Assembly: GCA_958296135.2 (NCBI GenBank)
Contig: CATQHZ020000001.1
Span: 3,328,001 to 3,392,000, forward strand
DNA length: 64,000 bases
DNA from: an uncultured Poribacteria bacterium
GTDB lineage: Bacteria; Poribacteria; WGA-4E; WGA-3G
Direction: 5' to 3'
The notes under the pieces are model-generated. The model did not search any database. It was given only the letters and a program-made list of their open reading frames with translations, and was not told the origin of the DNA. A program made the translations under genes and the position numbers. This document shows positions 10,300 through 51,517 of the stretch, piece after piece; position 1 is the stretch's first letter, and each line of letters begins with the position of its first letter.

Positions 10300-11163
10300 C
10301 TAACCCACCCACTCATCGCCGCAAATCACATCCAGCTGATCTTGCGGTTTATAGTAATCAGTAGGATGACGGTTTTCCCCCATATCGCCAAACAACCGTC
10401 GGCGACGCAAGGACATCCGTGCGAGCACTTCTGGCGGCAGCGTATCATAGTCGTAAGGGCGGCACCACATCTGTCCATACCGAAACGTGACACTCTTCCG
10501 AATCCGCTCTGTCCGATTCGGGCCGACACCGTGCCATAACGCCCACGGGAAAATGACTGCATCCCCTGCCTCCGCGAGGACTTGAATCGCGCCATCGGGA
10601 TACGTGCCTTTCGTAAACGCGTTTTCTGGGAAACGGTGTTTGTGGCTCCCCGGGACGCACATAAAATTGCCCTGGTCAGGTTCAGAAAGAGCTGTCAAGA
10701 AAAACTGGATTTTGAATTGCAGCGGCAGACTCTCCGGATGCGGATAGATGCGTTGAAGCGAGGGACCGGCATCGGTATGAAACGCCATCAGCGCATCTGG
10801 CTCAGGGTGCCGGACATAAATCTGCGTTCCCATGATTTGGAGGTAGGGCCCCATCAAGGCGAGGATAGTACCGAAGGTGCACGGATGATCGGTGAGCCTG
10901 TCCAGCGCGTCTGTCCGCTCAATCGCGCGAATGATGGTATACGCGCCTTTTCCGCCTTTCAGACTGGGCGTTTGCTGGACATACGTTTCAATTACCGTAT
11001 CCACAGCGATTAAAAGCGTCTCAATTTCAGTCGGTTTCAGCACCTGTTTGAGTAGCAAAAATCCTTGTTCATGCCACTGCTGCTGTTGGGCTTCGGTTAA
11101 GTGTTTCACGTTTTGCTGTTCCTCCCGGTAGCAACGGAGCGGGCAAGAAAATAATCGGTTCAT
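10300..11163 (-). CDS. Phytanoyl-CoA dioxygenase (PhyH) family Fe(II)/2OG dioxygenase
   Basis: FHTD HxD motif, VPGSH and WHGVGPN; start uncertain. Confidence 0.9.
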   Translation of the reverse strand: MNRLFSCPLRCYREEQQNVKHLTEAQQQQWHEQGFLLLKQVLKPTEIETLLIAVDTVIETYVQQTPSLKGGKGAYTIIRAIERTDALDRLTDHPCTFGTILALMGPYLQIMGTQIYVRHPEPDALMAFHTDAGPSLQRIYPHPESLPLQFKIQFFLTALSEPDQGNFMCVPGSHKHRFPENAFTKGTYPDGAIQVLAEAGDAVIFPWALWHGVGPNRTERIRKSVTFRYGQMWCRPYDYDTLPPEVLARMSLRRRRLFGDMGENRHPTDYYKPQDQLDVICGDEWVG

Positions 11164-18684: not shown

Positions 18685-20103
18685 CTAATAGGGCCGGTCG
18701 CTCGTTGTCAACGCGCACCACCGCGAGGCGAACAGATGGTTGAATAGCGCGTCCTGCGCCGCCGGCGTATGAATCTGCTTTAACGCCAGCGCAGCATGGA
18801 ATCGGACATATCGGTTCTCGTCTTCCAACCGCTCAACGAGGGTAGGAATTGCCGGTGCCGCGAGTTTCCCTAACTTTGTGAGCGCACGAGCGGCGTTGTC
18901 GCGAACCCAATAGAAATCATCACGTAATCCCGTTGTTAATACTTGCACCGCTTCCGTGAGTTCCGTTTCCGCTGCGACTTGCTGGCCGATGAGCCCTAAG
19001 CCTTCCATTGCGTGTCGCCGCACCCATTGACTGCTGTCTTGTGCGGCGCGCGTTAATGCAGGCACTGCCTCCTGCGCGGTTTTCCCCATATCCGCCAGCG
19101 CATACGCCGCGCTCGCCCGGACAGGCTCGGAATCGGCAGCAAGCGCGTCAATCAGCAGCGGCACCGCGGGAGTGCCCCTGATGCTCAACGCATACCCTGC
19201 ATAATTGCAGACCGCGTCGGAAACGCTATACAACGCTTGTTTCAAGGCAGGCATTGCGGCATCGCCGCCCTGCCCCAAACGATAGGCGGCGTTCAAGCAT
19301 GCGCGCTCGTCTTCGCTTGACAAGGTTTCAACCAGCGTCTCCACCTCAGCCGGCGACGCGCCGTTTGCAGTCCCGTTCGGTTTCCCATAATACCAATCCC
19401 AGAGTGATTCCCACATCGCAGGATGTTCCTCTGAATCTGCGCAGCTGCCGAGGGATTTCCAATCTGAAGTCTGGCTATGCCACGCCGGCTCATTGTGCAA
19501 AGCCGGTTCGTCTAAGCGCGAAAAGAGGAACTTCAACATATACCGCTTTTTGTCGCTCTGATTCGGCATCGCACGATGCCAGAGATCATAGTGGACAATC
19601 GTCACTGTACCGGCCTCACCACAGAGTGCGAGCTCGGGTTGCGCGTGCGCGCTCTCACCGGTATCGTAATACTGCGAACCGGGTAAAACGGCAGTCGGCC
19701 CCATGTCCTCCGTAACGTCCTGCGGATAATAGAACGCCATCGTCCAGCGGCACCGGTGCCGGCGAATCTGCTCATCGCCTTCATAGGTATCCTTATGAAA
19801 TACCTGTCCTTCGCTCCCTACTTGATTGTAGTGGCAGTATCGGTGCGGATGCATCACATAGTTGGGACCTAGGACTCCCTGCATCGCGCCGTGGACAACA
19901 GGATGCTCAAAGACTGCCTGAATTTCTGGGATGAGCGGGAGGACATTGTTGCCCAAATTGCCGGTCTGTGCGAACATCCGCTCCAGTTTGTCATAGATGT
20001 CCTCGTGAAAACTCGGCGGGAAATCAGCTTTCACCTTGACGTAGCCATTCATGATGAAATCCCGCATTGCCTGATCGGTAAGCTGCACTGCATTCGTATT
20101 CAT
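18685..20103 (-). CDS. PhyH-family dioxygenase fused to HEAT repeats
   Basis: FHKD, LPGS and WHRAMPN, followed by VR..AA.AL HEAT-like repeats; TTGACT-17-TATAAT promoter at 20136-20164. Confidence 0.88.
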   Translation of the reverse strand: MNTNAVQLTDQAMRDFIMNGYVKVKADFPPSFHEDIYDKLERMFAQTGNLGNNVLPLIPEIQAVFEHPVVHGAMQGVLGPNYVMHPHRYCHYNQVGSEGQVFHKDTYEGDEQIRRHRCRWTMAFYYPQDVTEDMGPTAVLPGSQYYDTGESAHAQPELALCGEAGTVTIVHYDLWHRAMPNQSDKKRYMLKFLFSRLDEPALHNEPAWHSQTSDWKSLGSCADSEEHPAMWESLWDWYYGKPNGTANGASPAEVETLVETLSSEDERACLNAAYRLGQGGDAAMPALKQALYSVSDAVCNYAGYALSIRGTPAVPLLIDALAADSEPVRASAAYALADMGKTAQEAVPALTRAAQDSSQWVRRHAMEGLGLIGQQVAAETELTEAVQVLTTGLRDDFYWVRDNAARALTKLGKLAAPAIPTLVERLEDENRYVRFHAALALKQIHTPAAQDALFNHLFASRWCALTTSDRPY

Positions 20104-25267: not shown

Positions 25268-26241
25268 TTACCTTTTCTTTACGATGAGGAGTTCGTGAGC
25301 GTGCTTGACGTGCCCGGTGCCATTCTCAATCCGATTCTTGCCAATGCGGGTTTCGCCCTGCCCTAAGGTATACTGCCATTCAACCTCAATGATTCGGAAA
25401 TCGGCATACCAGCCTCGGATAGTCTTGCAATCGTTGTAGGAAAGGACGAAGCCGCCATTATGCGCGTGGAGCAAGTCGCGTAGCAGTTCATGCTTGAAGC
25501 CGTTATGGTGCACTGGGAAATTCCGTTGTGGATAAATCCCCTTGAACATTTTCCCTTCATCAAGGTAGTAAGGCGGATCGCAGTAGAGGAATTCACCCGG
25601 ATGCAGAGGAAGAGTTTCCTCAAAACTTCCGTGCCGCACAGATAAAAAAGGACACTGGAAATGACGTACCGTTTCCACCGCACGGGCATATTTCCCCGGC
25701 GACTCGTAAATCTTCGACATCCAGCCGAGGAAGCCGGGACCGTAGGAGAGATTGTGATTGAACCAATAATGCGCCCCCAATTCTAACGCATCCTCAATGC
25801 GGTTTTCGTCCTTCCAATGCGCTTTGAGTCTACGCTTAATCTCAGCGTATTGCGTCTTCGTGGGGGCCACCGTTCAAGTCTCTCCGCAAGTTGTTTACCT
25901 GACGTAAGTTGCACATGCCAATAGTTGACGAGGATATCAAAGATGTCGTAGGCTTGCACCCGTATACCGAGTTCTGCAGCGCAGGCAATCTCAACCGCGC
26001 CACCGCCCATAAACGGTGAAACTAGTGTCTCTAAGCCATCGGGCATTTGCTCCACGACATGCCCAACGCCAAGACTTTTCCCACCAGCATAACGCAGCGG
26101 CAGCCCTTTGTAACGCGCGTATTTATACCTTCCCCGGCTTCTCAGCGACTCTAAAAATAGCACTCTCAAAGAAGTGCCAAAAAAGTCCGGATAGATATCC
26201 TTTATCTGAGCAGGACTTGCGGAATAACGTATCACGTGCAA
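25268..26241 (-). pseudogene. D12-class (Dam-like) N6-adenine DNA methyltransferase split by a frameshift near 25862-25868
   Basis: LRYAGGKS and SPFMGGG are in one frame; YCDPPY and LSYN are in another. The frames overlap at TGGCCCCCACG. Confidence 0.85.
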
Positions 26242-26344: not shown

Positions 26345-27472
26345 CTACGCAGTGCCTTCATCGGCTGAATCGTTGTGGCGAAAGAGTTTATCCCAAAAAC
26401 CGCCATGCTCCGTTTGAGAAGCTTCACCGAGAGACTCCGCAAACTCTTCTAACTTCTTGCGCTGCGTCTGGGTGAGGTGCCGGGGGGTTTCAATCTCGAT
26501 GCTGACAACCAGGTCACCGGCAGCCGAGCGTTTGTAGTGCGGAACCCCTTTGCCGGGAATGCGCAACTGCGCGCCATACTGCGTGCCAGCCGGAATCCGC
26601 AACTCCTCGGTGCCATCAATCCCCTCCACCTTAATCTTCCCACCGAGCGTCGCTTGGACGAAGGAAATGCGTGCGGAGGTAACCAGATCGTTTCGCTCGC
26701 GGCGGAAGCGTTCATGCGGGACGACATTGACAACCACAAAAAGATCGCCCGGCGGCGCGCCGTTCGTGCCAGCCTCGCCTTCGCCCCGCAACTGATATTT
26801 GAAACCGGTCTCAACACCTTTGTCAATAGTCAACGGGATGTCACGCTTGACGCGGATGAGGCCCTGCCCATCACAAGCCTGACAAGGTTCCGTAATGATT
26901 TCGCCTTCGCCGCGGCAGCGGGGACAAGTGCGGGACATGGTGAAAAACCCCTGCGATTGGGTTACCTGCCCTCTGCCGTAACATTCAGGACAGCTCTGAA
27001 CGCGCGACCCTTTTTTTGCACCGCTCCCCTCACACGTCGGGCAAGATTCAATTCGCGGCACCTCCAGAGTTACCTCTTTGCCATGGATGACATCTTCAAG
27101 CGTGACATCAAGGTTGTATTGCAAGCTGCGCCCGCGCTTCGGCGAACGATGCGACTCCCTGAAACCACCGAGCAGATCCCCGAAGACATCCCCGAAAATA
27201 TCGTCAAGGTTGACACCAAAGCCCCCGTAATTGCCAACACTTCCTTCCATCCCGGCATGGCCGAACTGGTTGTAACGGCTCCGTTTTTCAGGATGGCTTA
27301 GCACCTCGTACGCCTCGGTGGCCTCCTTGAATTTCTCTTCAGCCTCTTTGTTCCCCGGATTCTTATCCGGGTGATATTTAATCGCGAGCTTCCGGTAAGC
27401 CTTTTTAACCTCGTTTCCATCAGCACTACGGCTGACATCCAGAACCTCGTAATAGTCGCGTTTTTGCGTCAT
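26345..27472 (-). CDS. dnaJ: Chaperone DnaJ
   Basis: J domain HPD, four CxxCxGxG repeats. Confidence 0.98.
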
Positions 27473-27798: not shown

Positions 27799-28485
27799 CT
27801 AATCCGTTTCCGGAGCCTGCTCTGCATTCTCCGCTGGGCCCTGGGAGACGACGACTTGGGAAGCGCGAAGGACGCGAGTGTGCAACTGATACCCGCGCCG
27901 ATATTCCTCAACCACTTTGCCTTCAGGAACCTCATTCGATGGCACTGCAAGGATTGCTTGATGTTGGAGCGGGTCGAACGGTTGCCCAAGTGCCTCAATC
28001 GGCGTGAGCCCGTGGGCGTTGAGAGCATCCAGCAGCTGCTTTTGGACGAGCTGCACGCCTTCGCTGAAGTTAGCAAACTCCGTGTCGGTGTCGTTGGCAC
28101 CGGTCTTTTCAGCGACGCTTTTTATCGCCGCCTCAAGGCTATCCAACACGGGGATAACCCCTTCCAACAGGGCTTCATTGGCGTACTGAAGTTTCCGAAC
28201 CGTTTCGGCTTCCAACCGCTTTTTGGCGTTTTCTGCCTCGGCAGCGGTACGGAGGAGACGCTCGCGCTCTGCTTCATATTGTTCGCGCGCCGATGCTTCA
28301 ACCGCCTCCAACTGCTCCCTATACTCCGATTGGAGAGCCTCAAGTTCTGCTACCACAGCTTCAAGCGTGCGTTCTTGCGGTGCTGCACAAGTCTCTTCTT
28401 GCGTTGTCTCCAGTTCGTCCTCACACGCCGGAGCCGCTGGTGTATCAACTACAATTTCTATGGGAACCTCTTTAACGTCAGACAT
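27799..28485 (-). CDS. grpE: Nucleotide exchange factor GrpE
   Basis: LR.AAE.EN.KKR, FDPLQHQA and GY...RVLR.SQV.V. Confidence 0.95.
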   Translation of the reverse strand: MSDVKEVPIEIVVDTPAAPACEDELETTQEETCAAPQERTLEAVVAELEALQSEYREQLEAVEASAREQYEAERERLLRTAAEAENAKKRLEAETVRKLQYANEALLEGVIPVLDSLEAAIKSVAEKTGANDTDTEFANFSEGVQLVQKQLLDALNAHGLTPIEALGQPFDPLQHQAILAVPSNEVPEGKVVEEYRRGYQLHTRVLRASQVVVSQGPAENAEQAPETD

Positions 28486-28570: not shown

Positions 28571-29317
28571 TTAGCCATGAACAGCATCGGCGAACTGTTT
28601 CATCAGTTCAAACGAGCCATTTTCTTCAAGCACATTGCCTGTGACGATGAAATCCGCCCCGGCGTTGACTTTTTTCTCGGCGAGCACTGGCGTGCGGATG
28701 CCGCCGCCGACAATCAATGGAATGTTGATGTACGCTTTCACTGCGGCAATCATCGCATCCGAGACAGCGTGCTTCGCGCCACTGCCAGCCTCCAAGTAGA
28801 CGAGCTTCATACCGAGGTATTGGGCGGCTAACGCGTGCGGGCCCGCGATATCCGGCTTATTGCGCGGAATCGGCATCGTGCCACTCACGAATTCAACAGC
28901 AGTTCGGTTGCCGCCTTCAATCAACAAGTAGCCGGTGGGGATGGGTTCTAGCGCGTAGCGTTGAATCCACGGCGCGGCTTTCACCTGTTCCCCGATGAGA
29001 TAGTTCGGGTTTCTGCCACTGATGAGGCTCATGTAGAGAATCGCATCGGCGTGTGCAGTGAGGTGCATTGAGTCCCCCGGGAAAAGCACGATAGGGAGGC
29101 GTGTCGCGTTTTTCAACGTTTCCGCAATCGGATGCAAGGCGGTTGTTAAAAAACTGCCGCCGAGCAGAATCGCATCTGCACCTGCCTGTTCAACGTCGCA
29201 TGCAAGCCGGGCGCACGTCGCAACCTCACACTGCTCCGGATCGAGCAGGACAAGATAGCCAGCACGATGTCTATTCAGGACCTCGTGGAAGTGGTTCAGA
29301 ACCCAATGTGAAGCCAA
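28571..29317 (-). CDS. Geranylgeranylglyceryl phosphate (GGGP) synthase family, group II-like
   Basis: LLDPE, LGGS, LFPG, SLISGRNPNYLIGEQV, PTGYLLIEGG, YLEAGSGA, VGGGIR and VTGN motifs. Confidence 0.9.
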   Translation of the reverse strand: MASHWVLNHFHEVLNRHRAGYLVLLDPEQCEVATCARLACDVEQAGADAILLGGSFLTTALHPIAETLKNATRLPIVLFPGDSMHLTAHADAILYMSLISGRNPNYLIGEQVKAAPWIQRYALEPIPTGYLLIEGGNRTAVEFVSGTMPIPRNKPDIAGPHALAAQYLGMKLVYLEAGSGAKHAVSDAMIAAVKAYINIPLIVGGGIRTPVLAEKKVNAGADFIVTGNVLEENGSFELMKQFADAVHG

Positions 29318-29383
29318 ATGGAAACGTTCCTTCTCAATAAAGCGTTTACGGATTTGCGCGTGTTTCCCGCGCGTGTCCTAATT

Positions 29384-29412
29384 ATTTTACCACATTTATG
29401 CCCATTTGTCAA
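29384..29412 (-). promoter_or_regulatory. Sigma70-type promoter upstream of GGGPS-grpE-dnaJ
   Basis: TTGACA-17 bp-TAAAAT on the minus strand. Confidence 0.7.
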
Positions 29413-30662
29413 ATTATTCGCCGCGCCAATTCGTAGAGCAAAACGCCTGCAGCGACACCGACATTGAGCGACGCTTGGCTTTGCCTTCTTCCCGCTGCTG
29501 TTAGCACGCCAGGTGCCATCGGGATACCTACCAAGTCCGTGCAACCTTCGCGTGCCTGCACAGAAATACCGGTATGTTCATTGCCCACGACAACAGCGGT
29601 AGGCGGTTCAAGTTCTAGCGTGTAGAGGGATTTCTCGGTGTGCGCAGTCGCGCCTAGCACAGTCCAACCCGCCTTTTGAAGTGCTTCAAGTGCAGGTGCG
29701 GTATCCGCCGAGAAAAAGAGGGGAAAGCGGCCCACCGCGCCGCGCGCAGCACGAATGCAGTTTTTATGAAAAGGACTTGCGCCTTCGCCACACAGCAAAA
29801 CAGCAGAAACTCCTGCCGCGTCCGCTGTCCGCAGCGTCATTCCTAAATTATCAGGATTCCCGATATTTTCGGCGATGAGCAGCGTGCAACTCGGACTAAA
29901 GTGAAAATTTAGTTCATTAGATGCTGCCAAAAACCGGCGATAGTTGAGATGCACCGAAGCCACTACCAGCGGCACAGGACGAGTTGTGGTAACCGAACCC
30001 ATGATGCCATCGCTGACTTGGTAGTAGGCGAGATTCTCCGCATGCGCCCGCGTGAGAAGGCTTTTCCCTTCTGATGTCGCAAGGAAACCGGCAGTGTAGA
30101 GAATCGTTTCCACCGGCAATCCGTCTGCCACGGCGCGCGCAACGATGCGCGCCCCTTCTATCACAAATTGCTTGTGCGCAAGTTTGCCCTTTAAGGCGGT
30201 TAATTTCCGAAACTGTGAAGCGATTGCATCCTTGCGCCTCGAAATGGTTCGCCGTTCCGCCTTGTTCTCACTGCCCCGTTTGACACCCCGATAAAAGCAC
30301 CCTGCATCGGTTTGGACAAATTCACCCACTAGCACTTCCCTCAGCGCGTTGTCCATCCATGTCTCTGGGACATGAAACATGCCGATACTTTGCCGTGGAT
30401 AAGCGAGCAGAAGTTCGCGCAACGCCCTTTCCGTTGTGGCGGTGATGGACACTTCGTAGTCAACCCTTTCATTTTCCGCGTCCGTTTCGTGTGTCGTGCC
30501 CGTTGGCCACATTAGCATCACACCATCGATTTTTTGCCATCCAGAAACACTCACCTCATAGGAGCAATCCCCTGAGCGCGATGCCTTAAAACGGGAAACT
30601 GCATCGGAAACCTCGGTGCCTTCTCTCTCCAAAAAAGCGATGATGTTTTCGTAGATGTCCAT
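29409..30662 (-). CDS. TrmH/SpoU family RNA methyltransferase with N-terminal extension
   Basis: FVIEG, NPDNLG.TLRTADAAG, GNEHTG, IPM and SLNVGVA; about 130 extra N-terminal residues. Confidence 0.88.
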   Translation of the reverse strand: MDIYENIIAFLEREGTEVSDAVSRFKASRSGDCSYEVSVSGWQKIDGVMLMWPTGTTHETDAENERVDYEVSITATTERALRELLLAYPRQSIGMFHVPETWMDNALREVLVGEFVQTDAGCFYRGVKRGSENKAERRTISRRKDAIASQFRKLTALKGKLAHKQFVIEGARIVARAVADGLPVETILYTAGFLATSEGKSLLTRAHAENLAYYQVSDGIMGSVTTTRPVPLVVASVHLNYRRFLAASNELNFHFSPSCTLLIAENIGNPDNLGMTLRTADAAGVSAVLLCGEGASPFHKNCIRAARGAVGRFPLFFSADTAPALEALQKAGWTVLGATAHTEKSLYTLELEPPTAVVVGNEHTGISVQAREGCTDLVGIPMAPGVLTAAGRRQSQASLNVGVAAGVLLYELARRII

Positions 30663-30664
30663 AA

Positions 30665-31540
30665 TTACCAAAACGTTCCGAGATAAATCGCCCCAAGCCC
30701 GATAAATATGTCCCACTTCATCCAGCGTTGAATGAAGGCGCAGTTTTCCTTAGCGGCATCTCTCCACAACCGAATGCCCAAGTAGAGGATAACCAGATCT
30801 ACGCCGAGCACAACAACCACTAAATAGATGCCTGAATACCACCCGAATAGGTACGGGATAGGACTCAACAAGATGACTACGGCTAAGCAGACTAACGCGA
30901 TTTTCACGGCGAGTCGCGGGTTGAGAATCGCCAGCGTCTTAACACCGTTTTTCAAGTCGCCCTCCGTGTCCTCGAGGTCTTTCACAATTTCGCGCGGCAA
31001 TGTGAACAAGAACGCGAACATTGCAGGAACAAGCGTGCCTGCCACCGATTCTATCGCTACGCCGCCGGCAATGAAGGTTAACCCTGTCAATCCGCTGACA
31101 ACTAGATTGCCAATGAACGGCGTGCGTTTCAGCCAGAGCGCGTAGGTGAAAACGGCGATGGAGACGAGCATCGCGATGCCGAGTGCGTAAACGTTGATGC
31201 ACGCGCCAAGCCCGATGCCAAGAGCGATGAGGCATATCGCAAAAATCAGCGCGGCGCGCCTGCGAATGCGCCCGGAAGGGAGCGGCCGCTGGGCCCTGTT
31301 GATGCAATCGATGTCGTAATCACAGTAATCGTTTATCGCGTTTCCAGCGGAGAGCAAGACAAGTGCCGAGACAGAGACAAGCCAGATTCGGATATCAATG
31401 AGGTTCTCCCACCTGTCTGCGCTAGCAAACATGCCACCGAGCCACGCGGAAACAAAAGCGATGACACCATTCAGTGGGCGCGCCAACTCAACATAATTTT
31501 TCGTCTGTCGCAATGCGTTCGATAAAGTAGATTGGTGCAA
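30665..31540 (-). CDS. UbiA-family prenyltransferase, digeranylgeranylglyceryl phosphate (DGGGP) synthase-like
   Basis: YVELARP.N, GNAINDYCDYDIDCINR..RPLPSGRI, Y...LKRTPFIGN and REIVKDLEDTEGD motifs; TTG start inside a repeat. Confidence 0.82.
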   Translation of the reverse strand: MHQSTLSNALRQTKNYVELARPLNGVIAFVSAWLGGMFASADRWENLIDIRIWLVSVSALVLLSAGNAINDYCDYDIDCINRAQRPLPSGRIRRRAALIFAICLIALGIGLGACINVYALGIAMLVSIAVFTYALWLKRTPFIGNLVVSGLTGLTFIAGGVAIESVAGTLVPAMFAFLFTLPREIVKDLEDTEGDLKNGVKTLAILNPRLAVKIALVCLAVVILLSPIPYLFGWYSGIYLVVVVLGVDLVILYLGIRLWRDAAKENCAFIQRWMKWDIFIGLGAIYLGTFW

Positions 31541-31668
31541 TCACATGTTCCTGCGTAAACCGTCATTACGGTGCCGGTCAAACTGCCGATGCAGCTCGCC
31601 TCTCTTGAGAGGCGTAACGGTGTCAATGACTACGTTCTTGATGCTACGGACAGCTCCTCGCGCGCCGC

Positions 31669-32742
31669 TTAATCTTTGCCCTCCAACGCTCGGATTTTCG
31701 CCTCCAATTCCACCACTCGTTTCTGGAGTTTGGTAAATTCAGGGAGAAGTTCGGGCAATTTTCGGGTGGCGGCGTGGATGCGCAATTCTTGTTGATGAGG
31801 CCGCGCGGGAAACCCGGAGAGATGACTGCCGGGCGGCATATCCTTCGTCACCGCGGATTTCGCGTAAACGACACTGTCATCACCGAGGGTGAGATGCCCG
31901 GCCGCCCCTGCATGTCCCGCGATGTTCACCCGGTTACCGATGATAGTGCTCCCCGCGATGCCGGCTTGCGCGGCGATGCAACAATCTTCTCCGATAACCA
32001 CGTTATGCGCAATTTGCACGAGGTTGTCCAATTTCGTCCCGCGCTTGATGTGCGTCACCGCGAGCGTTGCCCTGTCAATGGTAGTATTCGCGCCGATCTC
32101 AACGTCGTCCTCAATGATAACCGTGCCGATCTGCGGGATTTTGTGGTGCAGCGGCGTGCTTTTCTCACGGCGTGTGCCGACCGGCGCGAAGCCGAACCCA
32201 TCACTCCCTATGACCGCGCCGCAGTGAATAATCACCCGGTCGCCGATAGTTACCTCCTCGCGGATGTTGACGTGAGGGTAAATTAACCCATCGGCTCCGA
32301 TTTTGCTGCCTTCGCCGATATAGACGAACGGCTGGATGACGGTACCCTCGCCGATTTCAACGTTGTCGCCGATGACAGCGAACGCTTGGATGGCGACGCG
32401 CTCTCCAAGTTTCACATTCTTCCCGATAATCGCTGTCTCATCAACACCGGGGAGGGCCCGATGGTTTTTGTCCCACGCGAACATCTCCAAGACCTGGACA
32501 AATGCCCAGTAGGGGTTCTCCACGCGGATAGTCGGCATTCCGTTGCTGGCGACATCGCGGCCGATGATAATCGCTGCCGCCTTCGTTGTCGCTATAGCGG
32601 CGAGATACTTCGGGTTCGCGACGAAGGTAATCTGCGTCGGACAGGCCTCTTTAATCCCCGAAACGCCGCTAATCTCAATCTCACCGTCTCCGGATAACTC
32701 GCCGCCCAACTCTTTACAAATTTGCTTGAGTTTGATACGCAT
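31669..32742 (-). CDS. lpxD: UDP-3-O-acylglucosamine N-acyltransferase
   Basis: Hexapeptide repeats, IGSDGFGF, KIPQIG, IGANTTIDRA and DNLVQIAHNV. Confidence 0.97.
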   Translation of the reverse strand: MRIKLKQICKELGGELSGDGEIEISGVSGIKEACPTQITFVANPKYLAAIATTKAAAIIIGRDVASNGMPTIRVENPYWAFVQVLEMFAWDKNHRALPGVDETAIIGKNVKLGERVAIQAFAVIGDNVEIGEGTVIQPFVYIGEGSKIGADGLIYPHVNIREEVTIGDRVIIHCGAVIGSDGFGFAPVGTRREKSTPLHHKIPQIGTVIIEDDVEIGANTTIDRATLAVTHIKRGTKLDNLVQIAHNVVIGEDCCIAAQAGIAGSTIIGNRVNIAGHAGAAGHLTLGDDSVVYAKSAVTKDMPPGSHLSGFPARPHQQELRIHAATRKLPELLPEFTKLQKRVVELEAKIRALEGKD

Positions 32743-32858
32743 TTTTTTGAATCGCTTCTTCTGTTGTTGCAGGAATCCACAGCAATGAGTGGAAAAACGT
32801 CACTCGAAAAAGGGACGTTATTTTCTCCAACCATACGAAAAATTCACCACGCACCGGG

Positions 32859-33404
32859 CTACTCGGTGTTTTCGTTTAACGAGCCTATCAACCGCTGTGT
32901 GAGATCGTGTTTTTCGTCCACATAAAGCACAACGAGCCCCTTTTCAAGGATAATGTCGTAGTCGTCCGCTTCACCGACTTCAATAATCCGGTCGCGGATC
33001 TCCTTGTAAATGGGTTCCATTAGTTCCTTCTCTTTGTTCAGCAGGCCCTGTTGGCTTTCCTGAGCCTTCCGCTGGTATTCCTGCTGTTTTCGGAGAATTT
33101 CCGCCTCCAGATCCGCTGTCTGCGCCTCCTCAACGAAGAGCTGCGTTTTCGCCTTTTTGTCTCGAAGGCTCCGGATTTCGTCCTCTAGCGCATTCAGGCT
33201 CTCCTCTAGGCGGCCCCCATACACTTGGAGGGTTCCAATAGCCGCCTTCGCTTTCTCATACCCCTCCAGCACCTTTTGCGTATTGACTACGCCGAGTTTA
33301 AAGGCCTCCTGGCCGATACTGCCAGAAATGAGGCAGAAAGAGGCGATTAAAACAATTAACATTGATAGGCGTGCTTTGGCAGCACGCGACCCAAGTGATT
33401 TCAT
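32859..33404 (-). CDS. skp: OmpH/Skp periplasmic chaperone
   Basis: Signal peptide, KLGVVN..KVL, coiled coil, YDIIL and DLT; lies between bamA and lpxD. Confidence 0.9.
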   Translation of the reverse strand: MKSLGSRAAKARLSMLIVLIASFCLISGSIGQEAFKLGVVNTQKVLEGYEKAKAAIGTLQVYGGRLEESLNALEDEIRSLRDKKAKTQLFVEEAQTADLEAEILRKQQEYQRKAQESQQGLLNKEKELMEPIYKEIRDRIIEVGEADDYDIILEKGLVVLYVDEKHDLTQRLIGSLNENTE

Positions 33405-33593
33405 TTTTTGTATTTCCTTTCGGTGACTCAGCTCCCTCCTGGGAGGGAACAGTTGTCGGGTTGAATCCTTCATCGTCGTTGACGATGACTACATTTTCGG
33501 TGCCAAAACTTAGCGAAGGCATCCCCCACGTCAGCGGATGCGCATGGCAAGTTTCCCCGCCAAGGCATCTCTATCAAACGCTCGGGGTCAAGC

Positions 33594-36071
33594 CTAAAAG
33601 CCGGGGCCCACTGTGAAATGGAATTTGCCGGCCGGTTCTCCCGTAATCCGATCCAAGCCGTAGCCCCAGCCGAGTCGCACGAGCATGCCGAGCATCGTAA
33701 AACGGGCCTCAGCACCGACTGAGCGTTTCAGGTTGATTTCACGAAAGACGTTTGTCGTGCTCTCATCCCACACCTGTCCGATGTCAAAGAATAGTGCCGC
33801 CGTAAGTTGCGGGGAAACGGGAACGCGATATTCAAAGTTGGCGAAGAATACTTTATCTCCACCGTACGGGTTTAAACTATCGGGGTAAATCTCCCAATCC
33901 TCGTAGCCGCGAAGCGTATCCACACCACCGAGGAAGAAGCGTTCATAGAAGAGGAAATACGCGTCATTGCTTTTACTGCGCATGTAACCGGCACGGGCGT
34001 GCGCCGCAAAGACGTGATTCCACCACGGGCTGTAGAACCAACTAGTGTCCGCCGAGTATTTCTGGAACTGGTTGTCCGCACCCAAAATGCCGCCTGAATA
34101 TTCATAAGAGAGCGTATTCAGAGAGCCGGCTGTCGGGTCAAACACCGAAGTGCGGTAATCGCGGGTGTCCCTGCCCACAGCGAACAGAATACTTCGCGTC
34201 GACCGGTCAACGATTTGTTCGTCCGGATTGTGTGCTTCAACCGCTTCGTTACGGAAGCGGACGGACAGGTCGATGTCTTGCGTAATCGGGTGCCCAAGCG
34301 TCACAGAAGCCCCTCTTCTGCCCCAAACATACCGGTCGTACGAGTATAAGCTCCCTGCGCGACGCAGTGCAGAACCGACTGTGCCGTAGTAGCGGCGGAA
34401 GCGGCGGTTATCGTAAAGCCGTGCGTTCAGCCGCGTCGGGGTACCTAAAATCCACGGCGTTCCGAAACTGAGCTCGGCAGTGTGATGGTCGCGGGTGCCG
34501 AGCTCGCCTTTGACATGCAAGCGGTAGGCGCGCCCTCGGAAATTATTTTGTCCAACTTCGGCCACGCCGAAGATGCCGCCTTCGCTACCGTAACCGCCCC
34601 CGAGGCTCAGCATGCCAGTGCGCGGTGTCTCCGCGATGTTCACCCTGAGGTCCTTCCGATTTTCGTCGGCAGTATCGCTTGGGACAAAGTCAACGGCACG
34701 AATGAAGGAGCCCATTTGAAACAACCGTTGCCGCGCTTTCCGCAAGGATTTGACATCCAGCAACTCTTCGGATTTAATCTTCAACCAATCTAACTCGCGT
34801 TTGACGACGTGCTCCTTCGTTTTTTCCAACCCAGTAATCACGACTTTATTGATGATGATGATGTCCCCCTCGTTGATGTTCAGGGTGATGTTCACGACAC
34901 CGTTCACTTCATCAAACACGGGAATTGGCACGACTTCCGAGAGTAGGTAGCCTTTGTCAAGATAAGCCTGCTGCAGTTTTCCGATGGATTCATCGAAAGT
35001 GCCGCGGTTGAAAATTTCGCCTTCCGCCGGGTCAAGCATCCGGCGAATCTTTTTTTCTGAGAAGACTGCCTTTGCACCGGACTCCACTTCAAGGGTATAC
35101 GCGCCGATCACAAACTCGGGGCCTTCATCCACGGTGATGTCCAAAATCAGCCCGGTCTTGTCCTCCGTGAACCGCTTTTCATGTCCCAGGACTTTCACCT
35201 GTGCAAATCCCCGGTCTTGATAGTAGTTTCGGAGGTTGAGCGCTAAGTCTTCCTCTTCAAACAGCATCTGATCGAAGGGTTTGCCGGTGCGTGTCTTGAG
35301 CTGCTTTCGCAACTTGTTGACAGAAACGCGTTTATTCCCAATGAAGTTAATCTCCTCAATCCTGACGCGAGGGCCCTCATTGATCTCAAAGGTGACCTGG
35401 ATTGTTTTGGCTGCGCGGGTTTCTCCATCCGTAGGTTCCGCCTTGCTCTTTTCGTCCGGTTCAGTGTCGGTAACCTCCTCGGTGTTGAGGGGGCGGATGT
35501 GGGTTTGGATGCTCACCAAGTAGTAGCCCTTTTCGTGGTAGAGCTGCTTGAGCACGCGCTCGCTCTCCCACTGCCGCCGTTCGCTATAAATTTCGGCAGT
35601 CCGGAACGTCAACTTATCCTTGAGTTTGCCGGCACTCAACTCTTCATTGCCGATAAAGTTGATGTCGCCAATCTTCGGGCTTTCAACCACGTTGTAGATA
35701 ACCTCTAGCCCGCCATCCTTAATGGATTCCACCGCCACCGAGATGTCGGAGAAAAAGCCGGTATCCTTGTAGAGGCTCTCAATGTCCTTCGTGAGCAGTT
35801 CCTGAGAAATTTCCTGCCCGACGTGCGTCTGAATGAGCGTCCGCAACATCTCCTCAGACGTGGTGTGAACCCCCTTAAAGGAGACCTTTCTAACGACAAG
35901 CCTCTCGTCAACTGCGGATGGGGCGGGCTCTTCCGATGCGACGGTAGGTTCCGGAGCGGCTTGCACTGCCTGTTCTTCGGCATACACCGTGCCAACGCTT
36001 AGCCCGGCGATGACGAAAAAGGATAGGCAAAGCGCAGTGATTTGGGTTAACATGTCTCTTCTTTCATCCAT
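33594..36071 (-). CDS. bamA: Outer membrane protein assembly factor BamA
   Basis: POTRA repeats, F.LGG..TLRGY and C-terminal FHFTVGPGF. Confidence 0.95.
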   Translation of the reverse strand: MDERRDMLTQITALCLSFFVIAGLSVGTVYAEEQAVQAAPEPTVASEEPAPSAVDERLVVRKVSFKGVHTTSEEMLRTLIQTHVGQEISQELLTKDIESLYKDTGFFSDISVAVESIKDGGLEVIYNVVESPKIGDINFIGNEELSAGKLKDKLTFRTAEIYSERRQWESERVLKQLYHEKGYYLVSIQTHIRPLNTEEVTDTEPDEKSKAEPTDGETRAAKTIQVTFEINEGPRVRIEEINFIGNKRVSVNKLRKQLKTRTGKPFDQMLFEEEDLALNLRNYYQDRGFAQVKVLGHEKRFTEDKTGLILDITVDEGPEFVIGAYTLEVESGAKAVFSEKKIRRMLDPAEGEIFNRGTFDESIGKLQQAYLDKGYLLSEVVPIPVFDEVNGVVNITLNINEGDIIIINKVVITGLEKTKEHVVKRELDWLKIKSEELLDVKSLRKARQRLFQMGSFIRAVDFVPSDTADENRKDLRVNIAETPRTGMLSLGGGYGSEGGIFGVAEVGQNNFRGRAYRLHVKGELGTRDHHTAELSFGTPWILGTPTRLNARLYDNRRFRRYYGTVGSALRRAGSLYSYDRYVWGRRGASVTLGHPITQDIDLSVRFRNEAVEAHNPDEQIVDRSTRSILFAVGRDTRDYRTSVFDPTAGSLNTLSYEYSGGILGADNQFQKYSADTSWFYSPWWNHVFAAHARAGYMRSKSNDAYFLFYERFFLGGVDTLRGYEDWEIYPDSLNPYGGDKVFFANFEYRVPVSPQLTAALFFDIGQVWDESTTNVFREINLKRSVGAEARFTMLGMLVRLGWGYGLDRITGEPAGKFHFTVGPGF

Positions 36072-48040: not shown

Positions 48041-48508
48041 AGGTTTTCTGATTTGGGAGCCTCCTTTTTTCGGTTGGGGGTATGTTATCGTATTTTGGGT
48101 TTTGTGTCAACTGCGAAAATTCAGGGCGATTTGGTTGTCTCAATAGAGGCGCGATGAAATCGCTTGGACTAGACAAAATCCTGCCCGCCTTGCGCGGGGC
48201 TCTCGCTTTTCTGAACCTGTTGCTTCAAAGCGGCACGCTCATGACAATTTGACAAGACGAGAACTGCTGCCTAGTTCGTAGCACGAGATGTCAAACCTTG
48301 CTTGCGAGGTAGCGAGGTTTATTTTTCTTCTAGGCGTAACGGGCCTGTCCCTAGCGCACCCGCGGTCGACGCGAAGATGTCCGATAGCCGAGAAAAAACA
48401 GATTTGATTTTTGGCGTTTTGTGTGGTATACTCTATTATGTCATCGGATTTGCAATTTCGACGAACCCACTTTTACGCGTTTCTATAACTAGACACAGAG
48501 GTAGGCAC

Positions 48509-51500
48509 GTGAGCACGCAACCTGAAAATGTTATCACAGCCGAATTAGTCCGCATTCTGAATCGGATGAGTCCGAGATGGAAACTGGAACAACACCAACG
48601 TCCCTTCCGCGGCAGCCAGAAAAACCCCGACATTTTTATCACCCGACCAGGGTATGAACCCGTCGCCATTGAGGCAAAATACGTCGACTCGCCGGACGAT
48701 GTAGTGGCGCAAGCACAGAAACATGTCGGCCGTGTGCTGGAAACCGAGTACGCCACGCGCACCGAAACCCTGCACACCGTCATGGCGATTCGGTACCCGG
48801 CGTGGTTCAAGGATGTCGCGGGCAGAAACATTGAGGAGAAACTCTGCCGTGCTACCGATCTTCAATATCTGCTCAAAGGCAAGAGCGGCGGCGAAACCTA
48901 CCAATTTCCGCGCAACGGATGGGCGAACGGTACCGTTGCAGATATCGCGAACGCGGTGCATGTCGGGACAGTGCCGAGCGAACGGATTGACGATGCCGCA
49001 GCGGAAATGGAACGTGCTGTCAATATCGCCGCCCAGCAGCTGGACGATGCAGTCAAAGCACGTACCGCTATCGGGGACAGACTAGAGCACATCTTGCATC
49101 AAGAACGAGGCACACAGACCGCCCGCATGGCATGCCTTATCATCACGGACGCGTTTGTCTTCCAATCGTCACTAGCGGGCAAAGACTTGAAAGAACTCGC
49201 CGGCGACAACCTGTCGGCATTGAAGGCACTCGAAAATCGGAAACCGGTCCGCTCCCTCGGCCAGCATCTCCGCCAAATGGATTTCGCAGACGTGCTGACA
49301 GACTGGGAAACCCTCCTGAAAGTCAACTACCAGCCGATCTTCGCCGATGCCATGCAGATGGTAACGGCAATCGCTACCGACGACGCGTTGGTAAATGAGC
49401 TGCTCAGCATCCTGTGCAAGGCGGCGAATGACCTGGTGAAGACGAGGCTCGCGCAGATTCATGAGTTGGCAGGTGAAGTATTCCAAAAACTCATCGTCGA
49501 CCGGAAATACGTTAAGGCAAACTATACGCTGCCCACTTCAGCAGCACTGCTCTCAACGTTGGTATGTCCCGAACTTCCCGATGGGCGGCTGCCGAAAGTT
49601 GCCGACTTCGCCTGCGGGACCGGGTCACTGCTCAACGGCGTTTACAAGCGGGTGCAGCGGCTTTATGAACAGCAAGGCGACAAGGATAGCGCGGACATCC
49701 ATAAAGAGATGCTTGAGAACAACCTCGCCGGTAGCGACATTATGCCGAACGCGACGCACATCACTTTTGCCAGTCTCGCGAGCGCGCAGCCAGAGATGCC
49801 CCTCGGCGCGACGCGGATTGTCACGGCACCCTACGGCAAGCAACCCAATGAGACATTCGCCGTAGGCGCGCTGGAACTCCTTGACGAGGAATTGCTACTG
49901 CCGATGATGGATACCGAGGCGGTCCAACTCGGCGGCGAGGAAAGTGCCACCGTTGAGATAAAGCGGATGTTCCGAAACGGCGAGATGGACATCGTCATCC
50001 AAAACCCGCCGTTTGTGAAACACAGTGCCGATGGAAACACGGAGGTGCCGAAAGTCGTCTTTCAAGGCACCGAGCGTCCATCGGCAGAAAAGAAAGAACT
50101 CCAAGCAGCCCTCCGGCGTAAAGGGACGCGAGTGGCTCACGGCGTGGCGGGACACAGTTCCTACTTCGTTGAACTCGCTGACCGGAAACTCAAGGAAGGC
50201 GGCACGATGGGTGTCATTCTCCCCGCGACAATCCTAGCCTCGGCATCGATGCAGAAAGTGCGGGATATGTGGGCGACAGAATACCACAACGTCTATGTCA
50301 TCACCATCGCCGGCGCGAAGGGACATGATAGTGCTTTTTCGGCGGCCACCAAAATAGCAGAGTGCATTGTCGTGGCGACGAAGGGTATCGGAGACAACAC
50401 CGGTGCTGCAACATTTGTCTCCTTGACCCACCGTCCGAATAGCCTGCTAGAGGCAACAGAGGTTGCGAACTGCATTCTCCGCAGCCATGGTGGTGAAGAG
50501 ACGCTCAGTATCGGCGAGGATGCCGTGGGCAAGCGTGTAGAATGCCCGGTGGTTATTGGACAGACCTGGGGTGCCTCACGCGTCAAATCCGTTTCCGTGC
50601 TACAGACAGCGGAGAAACTTGCAAATTCGGTATTGTCTCTCCCACGACTCACGACATCGCTGTCCATTCCGATGGCGCGCGTGGAAGACATCGCTGTCGT
50701 TGGATTCACTGAACCTACTATTAAAGGGAAGAACGGTGCATTCACAGTGGTGAAAGGGTATGAGAAGAGTGACGACGGTTATCCGGCGCTTTGGCAGGCA
50801 AATTGTAAACAACAGCGTGCGATGATGGTCATACCGGATTCGCAGGCGAAAATCCGCACCGGCGCGGAAGCGAAAGCCGAACGCGTCTTGGCACGCATCA
50901 GCCAAGCCCACTACTACCTGTCACCGACGTTCAGCGCAACCTCGGCTATCGCGATGTTTACCGAAGAACCGAGCATCGGTGCATGCATCATTACAAACGT
51001 AGCGTTTCAGGACTCGCGCCACGGAATCGCATGGACGCTGTGGTGCAATTCAACGTTGGGGTTAGTCTGTCATTGGATGTACAGCCAGAAGCAACAAGCA
51101 GGGCGGGGACGGTTGACAAGCACAACCTTCAAAACCTTGCCGACGTTAGATGTCCGTCAACTCTCCGATAACGCGTTATCAAACGCAGCGGCGATTTTCG
51201 AGCGGTTAAAATACGAACGGATGCTGCCGCTCAACGAATGCGCCAAAGACGAGATTCGGCATGAATTAGATGCGGAACTGCTGACGCGAGTGCTCGGTAT
51301 TGAGGACATCGGGGTGCTCGCTTCGATGCAAACGTTGCGGGAGATGCTCTGCGCAGAGCCGAGCATTCACGGTGGAAAGCAGTCCACGTGCAATCTGGAT
51401 AAGGAATTGGAGAAGTTGTCCGCGCAGGGCATCGTGCTGCCGGGGAGGACAGCGGAAGCGACGGTGCTGCAGCAGGCGGTTATGGATTTCACGTTAGCTC

Positions 51501-51517
51501 CGCCACCGAATGCGTAA
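48509..51517 (+). CDS. Type IIG-like fused restriction endonuclease/N6-adenine methyltransferase (about 1002 aa)
   Basis: GTG start with GAGG RBS; N-terminal PD...EAK nuclease motif (PDIF...AIEAK), motif I DFACGTG, motif IV NPPF and a C-terminal TRD-like region. Confidence 0.82.
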   Translation: MSTQPENVITAELVRILNRMSPRWKLEQHQRPFRGSQKNPDIFITRPGYEPVAIEAKYVDSPDDVVAQAQKHVGRVLETEYATRTETLHTVMAIRYPAWFKDVAGRNIEEKLCRATDLQYLLKGKSGGETYQFPRNGWANGTVADIANAVHVGTVPSERIDDAAAEMERAVNIAAQQLDDAVKARTAIGDRLEHILHQERGTQTARMACLIITDAFVFQSSLAGKDLKELAGDNLSALKALENRKPVRSLGQHLRQMDFADVLTDWETLLKVNYQPIFADAMQMVTAIATDDALVNELLSILCKAANDLVKTRLAQIHELAGEVFQKLIVDRKYVKANYTLPTSAALLSTLVCPELPDGRLPKVADFACGTGSLLNGVYKRVQRLYEQQGDKDSADIHKEMLENNLAGSDIMPNATHITFASLASAQPEMPLGATRIVTAPYGKQPNETFAVGALELLDEELLLPMMDTEAVQLGGEESATVEIKRMFRNGEMDIVIQNPPFVKHSADGNTEVPKVVFQGTERPSAEKKELQAALRRKGTRVAHGVAGHSSYFVELADRKLKEGGTMGVILPATILASASMQKVRDMWATEYHNVYVITIAGAKGHDSAFSAATKIAECIVVATKGIGDNTGAATFVSLTHRPNSLLEATEVANCILRSHGGEETLSIGEDAVGKRVECPVVIGQTWGASRVKSVSVLQTAEKLANSVLSLPRLTTSLSIPMARVEDIAVVGFTEPTIKGKNGAFTVVKGYEKSDDGYPALWQANCKQQRAMMVIPDSQAKIRTGAEAKAERVLARISQAHYYLSPTFSATSAIAMFTEEPSIGACIITNVAFQDSRHGIAWTLWCNSTLGLVCHWMYSQKQQAGRGRLTSTTFKTLPTLDVRQLSDNALSNAAAIFERLKYERMLPLNECAKDEIRHELDAELLTRVLGIEDIGVLASMQTLREMLCAEPSIHGGKQSTCNLDKELEKLSAQGIVLPGRTAEATVLQQAVMDFTLAPPPNA

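Follow-up and report, generated by a model that had tools for sequence, protein, structure and literature searches.

To our knowledge, a mixed archaeal/bacterial membrane has yet to be demonstrated in any natural organism. Among the closest described systems are pairs of GGGPS and DGGGPS in bacteria of the FCB group, which were tested for Ca. Cloacimonetes (Villanueva et al. 2021, ISME J, PMC7852524; Coleman et al. 2019, PMC6431249), in agreement with the initial annotation of the locus studied here. The 2021 Cloacimonetes work rests on expression of the genes in E. coli, where the Cloacimonadota pair gave archaeal-type lipids (PMC7852524). In the same article, Bacteroidetes GGGPS homologues are described as using G1P in vitro (section 22), CdsA is reported to be able to substitute for CarS (section 23), and co-location of the two genes within bacteria is said to seem restricted to Cloacimonetes. 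Poribacteria are not named in the main text of either paper and are not mentioned in the supplement of PMC6431249, although the supplementary trees of PMC7852524 may include the phylum.

Here, a window of 64,000 nucleotides (the whole stretch of DNA analysed) was examined from a genome assigned to sponge-symbiont Poribacteria, an affiliation that had been suggested from the sequence and that the genome assignment confirms. A known bacterial oddity is thereby extended to a further phylum. New are the distribution of the pair across Poribacteria, its clean losses, its co-location, the adjacency to Omp85 genes in the FCB group and the family-wide absence of GpsA.

Results

Gene cluster

Read along the minus strand, the cluster consists of BamA, Skp, LpxD, a DGGGPS-type UbiA, a SpoU/RlmB-like RNA methylase and a group II GGGPS (Table 1). 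The initial annotation had put these six genes on one strand, and both strand and coordinates hold. Its description of an outer-membrane/lipid A cluster stands in part: bamA, skp and lpxD all score above cut-offs, but lpxD is the sole lipid A pathway gene at the locus, and a scan of 49 of the 57 window ORFs showed no fabZ, lpxA or lpxB. Genes for lolCE, lolD and lnt lie upstream of the cluster.

The gene between the pair had been called trmH. Its best NCBIfam match is instead RlmB (102 bits vs 42 bits for TrmH), although the RlmB cut-off of 160 is not reached. About 165 N-terminal residues have no match to a known family, and 52 nt are shared with the 3' end of the UbiA gene. Since spoU is kept where both flanking genes are deleted, it probably stands outside the lipid module, as a bystander between the UbiA and GGGPS genes. 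The sigma-70-like promoter match between spoU and the GGGPS gene is a lead only, since the promoter scan as a whole was not enriched (5 found vs 4.9 expected).

Table 1 Features of the cluster and its downstream border.
Feature	Position	Strand	Details
bamA	33594..36071	-	825 aa, POTRA repeats and Omp85 barrel; TIGR03303 408 bits vs cut-off 297; PF07244, PF01103
skp/ompH periplasmic chaperone	32859..33473	-	PF03938 91.7 bits
lpxD, UDP-3-O-acylglucosamine N-acyltransferase	31669..32742	-	TIGR01853 364 bits vs cut-off 242.5
DGGGPS-type UbiA prenyltransferase	30665..31540	-	291-aa ORF; PF01040 157 bits
SpoU-superfamily RNA 2'-O-methyltransferase, RlmB-like	29409..30716	-	PF00588 102 bits, PF22435 35.5 bits
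Sigma-70-like promoter match between spoU and GGGPS (lead only)	29384..29412	-	TTGACA, 17 nt, TAAAAT, with TG; 11/12 positions
Group II GGGP synthase	28571..29317	-	248 aa; TIGR01769 219.5 bits vs 161.55; NF003198 286.6 vs 247
grpE	27799..28485	-	PF01025 143.5 bits; conserved downstream border of cluster
dnaJ	26345-27472		After grpE; DnaJ families; conserved downstream border of cluster

UbiA and GGGPS proteins

The three UbiA motifs quoted in the initial annotation are present in the translation (NDYCDYDIDCIN, YALWLKRTPFIGN and REIVKDLEDTEGD), and the assignment of the protein to the DGGGPS type, not to the quinone, heme or chlorophyll enzymes, is borne out by structure matches, NCBIfam scores and phylogeny. 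The closest solved relative is the M. jannaschii DGGGPS (PDB 6m31; 135 bits, E 2e-38, full-length alignment), vs 39 bits for chlorophyll synthase and 26 bits for 4od4. The DGGGPS-type NCBIfam models score 220 (NF009523), 207 (NF009521) and 177 bits (NF009522), which do not reach the respective curated equivalog cut-offs of 269, 296 and 353 bits; other subfamilies score at most 84 bits (ChlG 84, heme O synthase 68, UbiA 54). Five bacterial homologues checked likewise fall below the curated cut-offs. One of them, a Cloacimonadota UbiA (222, 199 and 154 bits) from the phylum whose pair was expressed in E. coli, misses them by about as much as the Poribacteria protein. Seven hydrophobic segments in a crude scan point to a polytopic membrane protein. 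Most relatives are 282 aa long and align from about residue 10-16, so the start codon probably lies some 10-16 codons downstream of the ORF start.

In the M. jannaschii enzyme, mutations show N62, D66, D70, Y125, K130, D180, D183 and D187 to be important (as listed in section 8 of the review PMC9385802). They align with N70, D74, D78, Y133, K138, D188, D191 and D195 of the Poribacteria protein, so that 8/8 are kept, although these residues are conserved throughout the UbiA superfamily and are no guide to the acceptor. In the UbiA tree, 80 DGGGPS-like rows (archaeal and FCB) are separated from the MqnP-like, CtaB and second UbiA paralogues of the window's genome (support 95), and the Poribacteria protein falls in an FCB clade next to Fidelibacterota, its closest relatives.

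The second enzyme is assigned to group II by its matches to solved structures (184 bits to 4mm1 and 182 bits to 4jej, vs 23 bits to the PcrB/HepGPS structure 4naf); NF003197 gives only 25 bits. The motifs YLEAGSGA and GGGIR are found, and the GGGPS tree places the protein in a bacterial FCB-type clade (support 100/99). In the alignment, Phe stands opposite W141 of 4mm1 (Arg in 4jej), a residue that we take to be the aromatic anchor of the hexamer.

Distribution and loss of the pair

Among 176 Poribacteria genomes, 140 carry both genes, 29 carry neither and 7 carry one only. The two lie together at 56 of the 62 Poribacteria loci, vs 1 of 95 other bacterial loci. In three genomes (G175, G098 and G104), the order BamA-Skp-LpxD-SpoU-GrpE-DnaJ-PrmA is kept, but the UbiA and GGGPS genes that would flank spoU are gone. 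Each gene forms a single Poribacteria clade with full support (UbiA 100, GGGPS 100/99), and the UbiA and GGGPS trees share their overall shape. The pair behaves as a single unit and is inherited vertically within Poribacteria. At least three lineages are without the pair, which is thus not essential. The surroundings are also conserved: bamA is retained upstream at 53 of the 62 Poribacteria loci, lpxD precedes the UbiA gene in the same orientation at 55 of 59, and the downstream order grpE-dnaJ recurs in most.

Remaining pathway and glycerol-phosphate source

A G1PDH-like candidate is encoded outside the window (G000:C1:4504627-4505676) and scores 137 bits on NF002022 (cut-off 413) and 73 bits on GldA. 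Its structure matches in the PDB are mixed between G1PDH and GldA, and it is not nested among archaeal EgsA in a tree that leaves its placement weak. The gene is uncoupled from the pair: it occurs in 0/40 genomes of one genus (g5), 33 of which carry the pair, and it is retained in G175, which lost the pair. The genome also encodes IspH of the MEP pathway and a short-chain IdsA/GGPPS-like synthase (L091:1342-2415), which scores 231 and 208 bits where the cut-offs are 468 and 500. No PF01864 match, and thus no CarS, was found in the genome (94.7% complete); CdsA and five CDP-alcohol transferases are present. For geranylgeranyl reductase, the sole candidate reaches 131 bits on TIGR02032 (cut-off 158.8) but 167 bits on a halogenase model. 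GpsA was found in 0/112 genomes of the window's family, where GlpK is universal, and PlsY was not found in the window's genome.

Discussion

These results suggest a module that is real, conserved and probably functional, and we consider it fairly likely that a functioning two-step module for isoprenoid ether lipids, of the bacterial (FCB) type, is encoded in the cluster. In the first step, the soluble group II GGGPS would put a geranylgeranyl chain on glycerol phosphate, with G1P preferred in tested relatives and G3P possible, and the membrane-bound DGGGPS-type UbiA would add a second prenyl chain, yielding a DGGGP-like diether. As CarS is absent, activation of this diether would fall to the bacterial CdsA; attachment of a head group would follow, through one of the five CDP-alcohol transferases. 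The resulting ether lipids would coexist with acyl lipids and lipid A, and a mixed membrane is plausible on this evidence. We infer the substrates, chain length, stereochemistry, product abundance and receiving membrane alike from sequence.

A possible, although rather less probable, alternative is that the product of the pair is a specialised envelope lipid of low abundance and not a bulk membrane lipid. Candidates would be a prenyl-glyceryl ether in or for the outer membrane, a lipid anchor or a membrane regulator, and the heptaprenylglyceryl lipids of Bacillus, which are minor, offer a comparison; however, we know of no specialised envelope lipid of such a kind. The dispensability of the pair in some lineages fits this alternative, as does the finding of neither CarS nor a clear geranylgeranyl reductase in the genome. 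The fixed place of the pair behind bamA-skp-lpxD points the same way, although neighbourhood by itself is no proof of a functional link. Outside Poribacteria, genes of this UbiA subfamily sit immediately downstream of one for a BamA-like Omp85 protein (~560-616 aa) at 25 of 77 bacterial loci (Bacteroidota 6/11, Ignavibacteriota 5/6, Kryptoniota 3/3, Zixibacteria 3/4), but such adjacency is seen in 0/10 loci of Calditrichota and 0/11 of Fidelibacterota, the closest relatives of the Poribacteria enzyme, and may stem from inherited synteny. Still, the recurrent bamA/Omp85 link suggests that the lipids may be bound for the outer-membrane system, and its repetition in several phyla gives a testable hint on the site of lipid action.

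The two-step ether-lipid module that we favour might also have a larger role. GpsA provides the usual bacterial route from DHAP to G3P. With no GpsA in the window's family and no PlsY in the window's genome, G3P would come only from glycerol via GlpK, and the sole recognisable glycerol-phosphate-type DHAP-reducing enzyme is the G1PDH-family protein. Were this protein to make G1P in a family free of GpsA, GGGPS and DGGGPS would form the de novo glycerolipid route and isoprenoid ethers would be major in the membrane. We regard this as unlikely, but if true, it would constitute a natural heterochiral mixed membrane. The family-wide absence of GpsA raises the question of which glycerol-phosphate stereoisomer underlies the lipids.

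It is very unlikely that GGGP is not the acceptor and that the UbiA protein instead prenylates a quinone, a pigment or another small molecule, with GGGPS acting alone and the proximity of the genes being incidental. Acceptor switches do occur among UbiA subfamilies, and the protein stays below all curated DGGGPS cut-offs, but the next-best subfamily, chlorophyll synthase, reaches only 84 bits on NCBIfam or 39 bits in the PDB. Another, weaker DGGGPS-like paralogue (L089, 131 bits) is present in the genome, and in some relatives the cluster includes an additional, divergent UbiA gene; however, separate MqnP-like and heme O synthase enzymes are encoded in the same genome. The similar shape of the two trees, the joint loss around a retained spoU and the rarity of genomes with one gene only (both/neither/one, 140/29/7) also argue against an unrelated acceptor. 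Least credible of all is that the genes are inactive, disused relics of an old transfer, as their loss in several lineages might suggest, since the frames are open across Poribacteria (identity 38-85% for UbiA and 50-90% for GGGPS, the latter over 144 genomes of 28 genera), all eight catalytic residues are kept, and one fully supported Poribacteria clade per gene is expected under long purifying selection.

Poribacteria may be a better test case for a mixed membrane, as many closed genomes are at hand and the lineages with clean loss of both genes provide natural controls. Poribacteria cells are abundant in sponges, so cell sorting and lipidomics should be feasible.

Comparison with known systems

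One of the systems compared is the Bacillus PcrB/heptaprenylglyceryl phosphate synthase, which makes a prenyl-glyceryl-phosphate ether of minor abundance. Like PcrB, the Poribacteria GGGPS is a bacterial member of the PF01884 family. Unlike PcrB, which has no DGGGPS partner, it has a DGGGPS-type one, and it gives only the low scores to 4naf and NF003197 noted above. Its likeness is to the group II enzymes of M. thermautotrophicus (4mm1) and Flavobacterium johnsoniae (4jej), and it passes both the TIGR01769 and NF003198 cut-offs. The UbiA protein resembles the M. jannaschii DGGGPS (PDB 6M31; Ren et al. 2020, as covered in PMC9385802) in keeping the Asp-rich motifs 1 and 3 and the Y/K motif 2 and in being a polytopic membrane protein. 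In contrast to that enzyme, it is bacterial, falls below the curated equivalog cut-offs and has a predicted DGGGPS role.

The Poribacteria pair also resembles the Ca. Cloacimonetes/FCB pair. Both combine a group II GGGPS with a DGGGPS-type UbiA in a diderm with fatty-acid lipid genes, and both are without CarS, for which bacterial CdsA is the proposed stand-in, and apparently without canonical EgsA. The NCBIfam profiles of the two UbiA proteins are near-identical (222, 199 and 154 bits for Cloacimonadota; 220, 207 and 177 bits for Poribacteria), although the Cloacimonadota row falls among archaeal rows of the tree and the Poribacteria protein in the FCB clade by Fidelibacterota. The arrangement also differs, since the Poribacteria pair is split by spoU and attached to bamA-skp-lpxD. 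The co-location that appeared restricted to Cloacimonetes in the account of PMC7852524 is seen here in Poribacteria, at 56 of the 62 loci.

Gene order and surroundings

The DGGGPS-type UbiA gene and the group II GGGPS gene lie on one strand with bamA, skp, lpxD and a SpoU-family methylase gene, in the order that the initial annotation described, and are followed by grpE and then dnaJ. The label trmH used there for the gene between the pair proved imprecise, as the protein is RlmB-like (102 bits on the RlmB model, below its cut-off of 160, versus 42 bits for TrmH). The N-terminal ~165 residues of this methylase match no Pfam family, and a search of the ESM Atlas with its N-terminal 170 residues gave no cluster match (score ~0.80, the noise level). 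The extension is conserved across Poribacteria, and in many genomes the UbiA gene runs about 45-52 nt into the start of the spoU gene.

Upstream of the cluster we observed ilvE, lolD, lolCE, an ORF without a family, a GNAT gene, lysS, a release-factor gene and lnt. The surroundings are therefore rich in envelope-biogenesis genes, although lpxD alone represents lipid A synthesis there. Scans for promoter-like sites (5, versus 4.9 expected) and terminator-like sites (14, versus 11.4 expected) showed no enrichment. A search for sequencing runs with this sequence found four, all from one study and probably from the source sample, with no RNA run among them.

Several other features of the window were recorded. 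A D12/Dam DNA adenine methyltransferase gene is predicted to be split, because two adjoining ORFs match its N- and C-terminal parts; it sits between dnaJ and prmA, which directly adjoin in most relatives. Two PhyH (phytanoyl-CoA dioxygenase family) proteins are encoded, one as a fusion with HEAT repeats; in other organisms, substrates of this family are isoprenoid-derived acyl chains. Also present are an IS605-type TnpB (OrfB) gene and a gene whose 1071-aa product contains a restriction-modification methylase domain of the Eco57I type.

Positions of the genes and features discussed. Plain numbers are window positions; G000 is the genome of the window, G027 a genome of family f2, and L-numbers are individual loci.
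Feature	Position	Strand
bamA	33594-36071	minus
skp	32859-33473	minus
lpxD	31669-32742	minus
UbiA-family gene (DGGGPS-type)	30665-31540	minus
SpoU-family methylase gene	29409-30716	minus
Codons of the SpoU N-terminal extension	near 30220-30716	
PcrB-family gene (GGGPS)	28571-29317	minus
Split D12/Dam methyltransferase gene	25268-26241	
PhyH genes	10300-11163; 18685-20103	
Eco57I-type methylase gene	48302-51517	
TnpB (OrfB) gene	58685-59767	
Weaker DGGGPS-like paralogue	G000:C1:1148396-1149070 (L089:1396-2364)	
G1PDH-like gene	G000:C1:4504627-4505676	
Divergent extra UbiA-family gene	L008:5005-5952	
Glycerol kinase match in a long frame (example)	G027:C1:3347924-3349399	

Family assignment of the two enzymes

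The GGGPS passes two curated cut-offs and matches the group II structures 4mm1 (184 bits) and 4jej (182 bits), whereas its score to 4naf, a Bacillus-type HepGPS, is 23 bits. For the UbiA protein, the best solved relative is the Methanocaldococcus jannaschii DGGGPS (MjDGGGPS; 6m31; 135 bits, E 2e-38, residues 11-288 aligned), followed by chlorophyll synthase (39 bits) and 4od4 (26 bits). Its top three NCBIfam models are all DGGGPS-type (220, 207 and 177 bits), and other subfamilies reach at most 84 bits. The protein falls below the curated cut-off on each of these three models; on two of them, homologues from Gemmatimonadota, Bacteroidota, Fidelibacterota and Cloacimonadota reach 199-226 bits, and judging by these scores the shortfall is general among bacterial homologues.

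The three UbiA motifs quoted earlier were found in the translation. Of the probed MjDGGGPS residues listed in section 8 of the review PMC9385802, all eight are identical in the alignment: N70, D74, D78, Y133, K138, D188, D191 and D195 correspond to N62, D66, D70, Y125, K130, D180, D183 and D187 of MjDGGGPS. These residues show a presumably competent active site and do not identify the acceptor, because they are common to the whole UbiA superfamily. A homologue search of protein databases returned close matches of Poribacteria type only, and JGI automatic annotation already labels one Poribacteria homologue DGGGPS.

The same genome encodes three further UbiA members. One is MqnP-like, one is a heme O synthase, and the third is a DGGGPS-like paralogue with a weaker score (131 bits on NF009523), whose gene neighbours encode a sulfatase and a beta-helix protein. 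At locus L008 and 13 other Poribacteria loci (14 of 80 from the search for UbiA relatives), lpxD and the DGGGPS-type gene are separated by another UbiA-family gene, which is divergent (315 aa; PF01040, 73 bits) and finds no counterpart in the window's genome. The weaker DGGGPS-like paralogue was considered as such a counterpart and rejected, since the two belong to different subfamilies and the extra gene gives no match in this genome.

Phylogeny

A search of species-representative genomes placed 59 loci closest to the UbiA gene (55-85% identity); 55 are Candidatus Poribacteria and the other four have the same gene order. The next matches are Neomarinimicrobiota at ~39% identity. In the UbiA tree (IQ-TREE 'quick' setting; 83 named rows, L178 being left out as too short), a long branch (SH-aLRT 95) separates all 80 DGGGPS-like rows from the paralogues of the window's own genome. 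Together with the structure and NCBIfam scores, this separation bears out the DGGGPS-type call of the initial annotation. Within the DGGGPS-like rows, 46 bacterial-type rows grouped together (support 80), the 12 Poribacteria rows (support 100) being joined by Fidelibacterota (87) and the remaining FCB-type phyla standing together (95); the lone Cloacimonadota row sits among archaeal rows.

The GGGPS tree ('careful' setting, 25 rows) shows the same picture, with Poribacteria as one 10-row clade (100/99) inside a 19-row bacterial FCB-type clade (100/99); the other six rows, five archaeal and one from Parcubacteria, stand apart. Both trees were built on rows chosen by hand among the search hits and have no root inside the family; they show affiliation, and not which way genes were transferred. 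The Poribacteria clade also appears in a 179-row FastTree with unnamed representatives.

Backbone supply and the rest of the pathway

Further lipid and isoprenoid enzymes were looked for in the genome (5.19 Mb, 4 contigs, 94.7% complete). A short-chain IdsA/GGPPS-like synthase, whose own scores lie below cut-offs, is present, as are a long-chain-like polyprenyl synthase, IspH of the MEP pathway, CdsA, five CDP-alcohol transferases and three PlsC-family acyltransferases. Neither CarS nor PlsY gave a match in this genome. A geranylgeranyl reductase is doubtful, its candidate scoring 131 bits versus a cut-off of 158.8 and matching a halogenase model better.

The candidate G1P dehydrogenase, a 350-aa Fe-ADH_2 protein encoded outside the window, scores higher on EgsA (137 bits) than on GldA (73 bits) but far below the EgsA cut-off of 413. 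Its PDB matches mix G1PDH and glycerol dehydrogenases (50-79 bits), its ESM Atlas matches are generic Fe-ADH_2 clusters only, and in a small tree the protein belongs to a long-branched Poribacteria clade that does not fall within archaeal EgsA. The neighbouring genes, for an M19 dipeptidase and a PD40-repeat protein, are uninformative on function. Seven genera have orthologues (at least 43% identity), among them genus g6 with 60 of its 65 genomes. This protein is a possible G1P source, a role unsupported by distribution because orthologues are found in 0/40 genomes of genus g5, where 33/40 carry the pair, and because one g6 genome (G175) kept the gene and lost the pair.

Unexpectedly, GpsA is missing from the window's genome and from its whole family (112 genomes). 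The genome has no match to the GpsA Pfam C-domain, and tblastn with two Poribacteria GpsA proteins gave a best E-value of 0.12. GpsA was found in 37 of 176 Poribacteria genomes and in 0/111 other members of the family; a full-length Poribacteria GpsA query likewise found 0/112. An apparent GpsA column in a 2016 survey table (PMC5059525) has a Poribacteria match, based on early single-cell genomes, and this is at odds with these counts. In a cross-tally of the genome lists the pair occurs in 125/139 genomes without GpsA versus 15/37 with it, most of the contrast being driven by genus g15. GlpK is present in 176/176 genomes, so G3P can, by prediction, be obtained from glycerol. In ten genomes of family f2 the glycerol kinase match lies inside open frames of ~1081-1106 aa, a length that suggests fusion with another domain.

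Co-occurrence and joint loss of the pair

GGGPS occurs in 144/176 Poribacteria genomes (28/31 genera) and the UbiA gene in 143/176 (27/31 genera). In the combined lists, 140 genomes have both, three UbiA only, four GGGPS only and 29 neither; 19 of these 29 belong to genus g15, and the absences therefore reflect few independent events. Five genomes with neither gene were probed for lpxD. Two of them (G135 and G136) were rejected as pair losses, as lpxD is missing too; the cluster region is probably unassembled there, and hence uninformative.

In three genomes from two genera (G175 of g6; G098 and G104 of g5), BamA-Skp-LpxD-SpoU-GrpE-DnaJ-PrmA is kept and both the UbiA gene and GGGPS are gone. 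This double loss flanking a retained spoU is the strongest evidence here that the pair works together. The same losses indicate a bystander methylase and a dispensable ether-lipid module. Of the 59 Poribacteria loci, 55 have a same-strand lpxD upstream, and two of the remaining four include next to nothing on that side; the UbiA gene is followed by spoU in 56, and 54 contain GGGPS.

We consider it probable that the predicted GGGPS and UbiA enzymes make a DGGGP-like diether, which bacterial head-group enzymes would then process further. The main rival, that the pair serves a specialised, low-abundance envelope lipid, is a less likely but serious alternative. That the UbiA enzyme acts on an unrelated acceptor is improbable, and that the pair is an inactive relic more improbable still; both readings sit badly with the joint losses and with the conservation of the genes. 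The mixed membrane suggested by the initial annotation is plausible as a hypothesis.

Omp85 adjacency in other phyla

Adjacency to Omp85-family genes was counted in bacteria outside Poribacteria, at loci whose upstream sequence spans 1800 nt or more, requiring an Omp85 gene on the same strand that ends no more than 700 nt upstream of the UbiA gene. It was observed at 25/77 loci: Bacteroidota 6/11, Ignavibacteriota 5/6, Kryptoniota 3/3, Zixibacteria 3/4, Chlorobiota 1/2, Gemmatimonadota 1/4 and loci without a phylum name 6/16, with none in Calditrichota (0/10), Fidelibacterota (0/11), Latescibacterota (0/4), Caldifarciminota (WOR-3; 0/2), Cloacimonadota, Parcubacteria, Deferribacterota or Lentisphaerota (0/1 each). 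The arrangement thus spans at least six phyla (e.g. L136, L141, L153, L168, L173, L120, L162 and L137). By Pfam and NCBIfam, the adjacent proteins (536-616 aa) contain POTRA and Omp85 domains and are BamA-like (111-246 bits, below the cut-off of 297), not TamA. Upstream of the Omp85 gene there is often a ~660-712-aa protein without a family or, in Bacteroidota, a GWxTD protein. The adjacency may be synteny passed on by descent, or it may mark a functional link with the outer membrane; neighbourhood alone is indecisive between the two. A literature search found nothing on DGGGP synthase with the outer membrane in Bacteroidetes.

Comparison with known pairs

Bacterial GGGPS/DGGGPS pairs as a kind are already known (PMC7852524; PMC6431249). 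In our literature search, broad reviews alone mentioned both Poribacteria and geranylgeranylglyceryl, without connecting them. The present analysis adds counts over the whole phylum, natural deletions of both genes, the Omp85 neighbours seen in other phyla and the family-wide absence of GpsA. With flanks of 3-6 kb and all distinct loci gathered, GGGPS and UbiA share a locus in 56/62 cases in Poribacteria, 1/95 in other bacteria (a Parcubacteria) and 5/48 in archaea; GGGPS lies elsewhere in the genome in 9 of 10 FCB-type genomes probed. In the Ca. Cloacimonetes study PMC7852524, the terms 'operon', 'adjacent' and 'synten' are absent, and its section 25 states that co-location of the pair within bacteria seems restricted to Cloacimonetes. 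Because 56 of 62 loci hold both genes, Poribacteria are a further case of such co-location, but with a gene in between.
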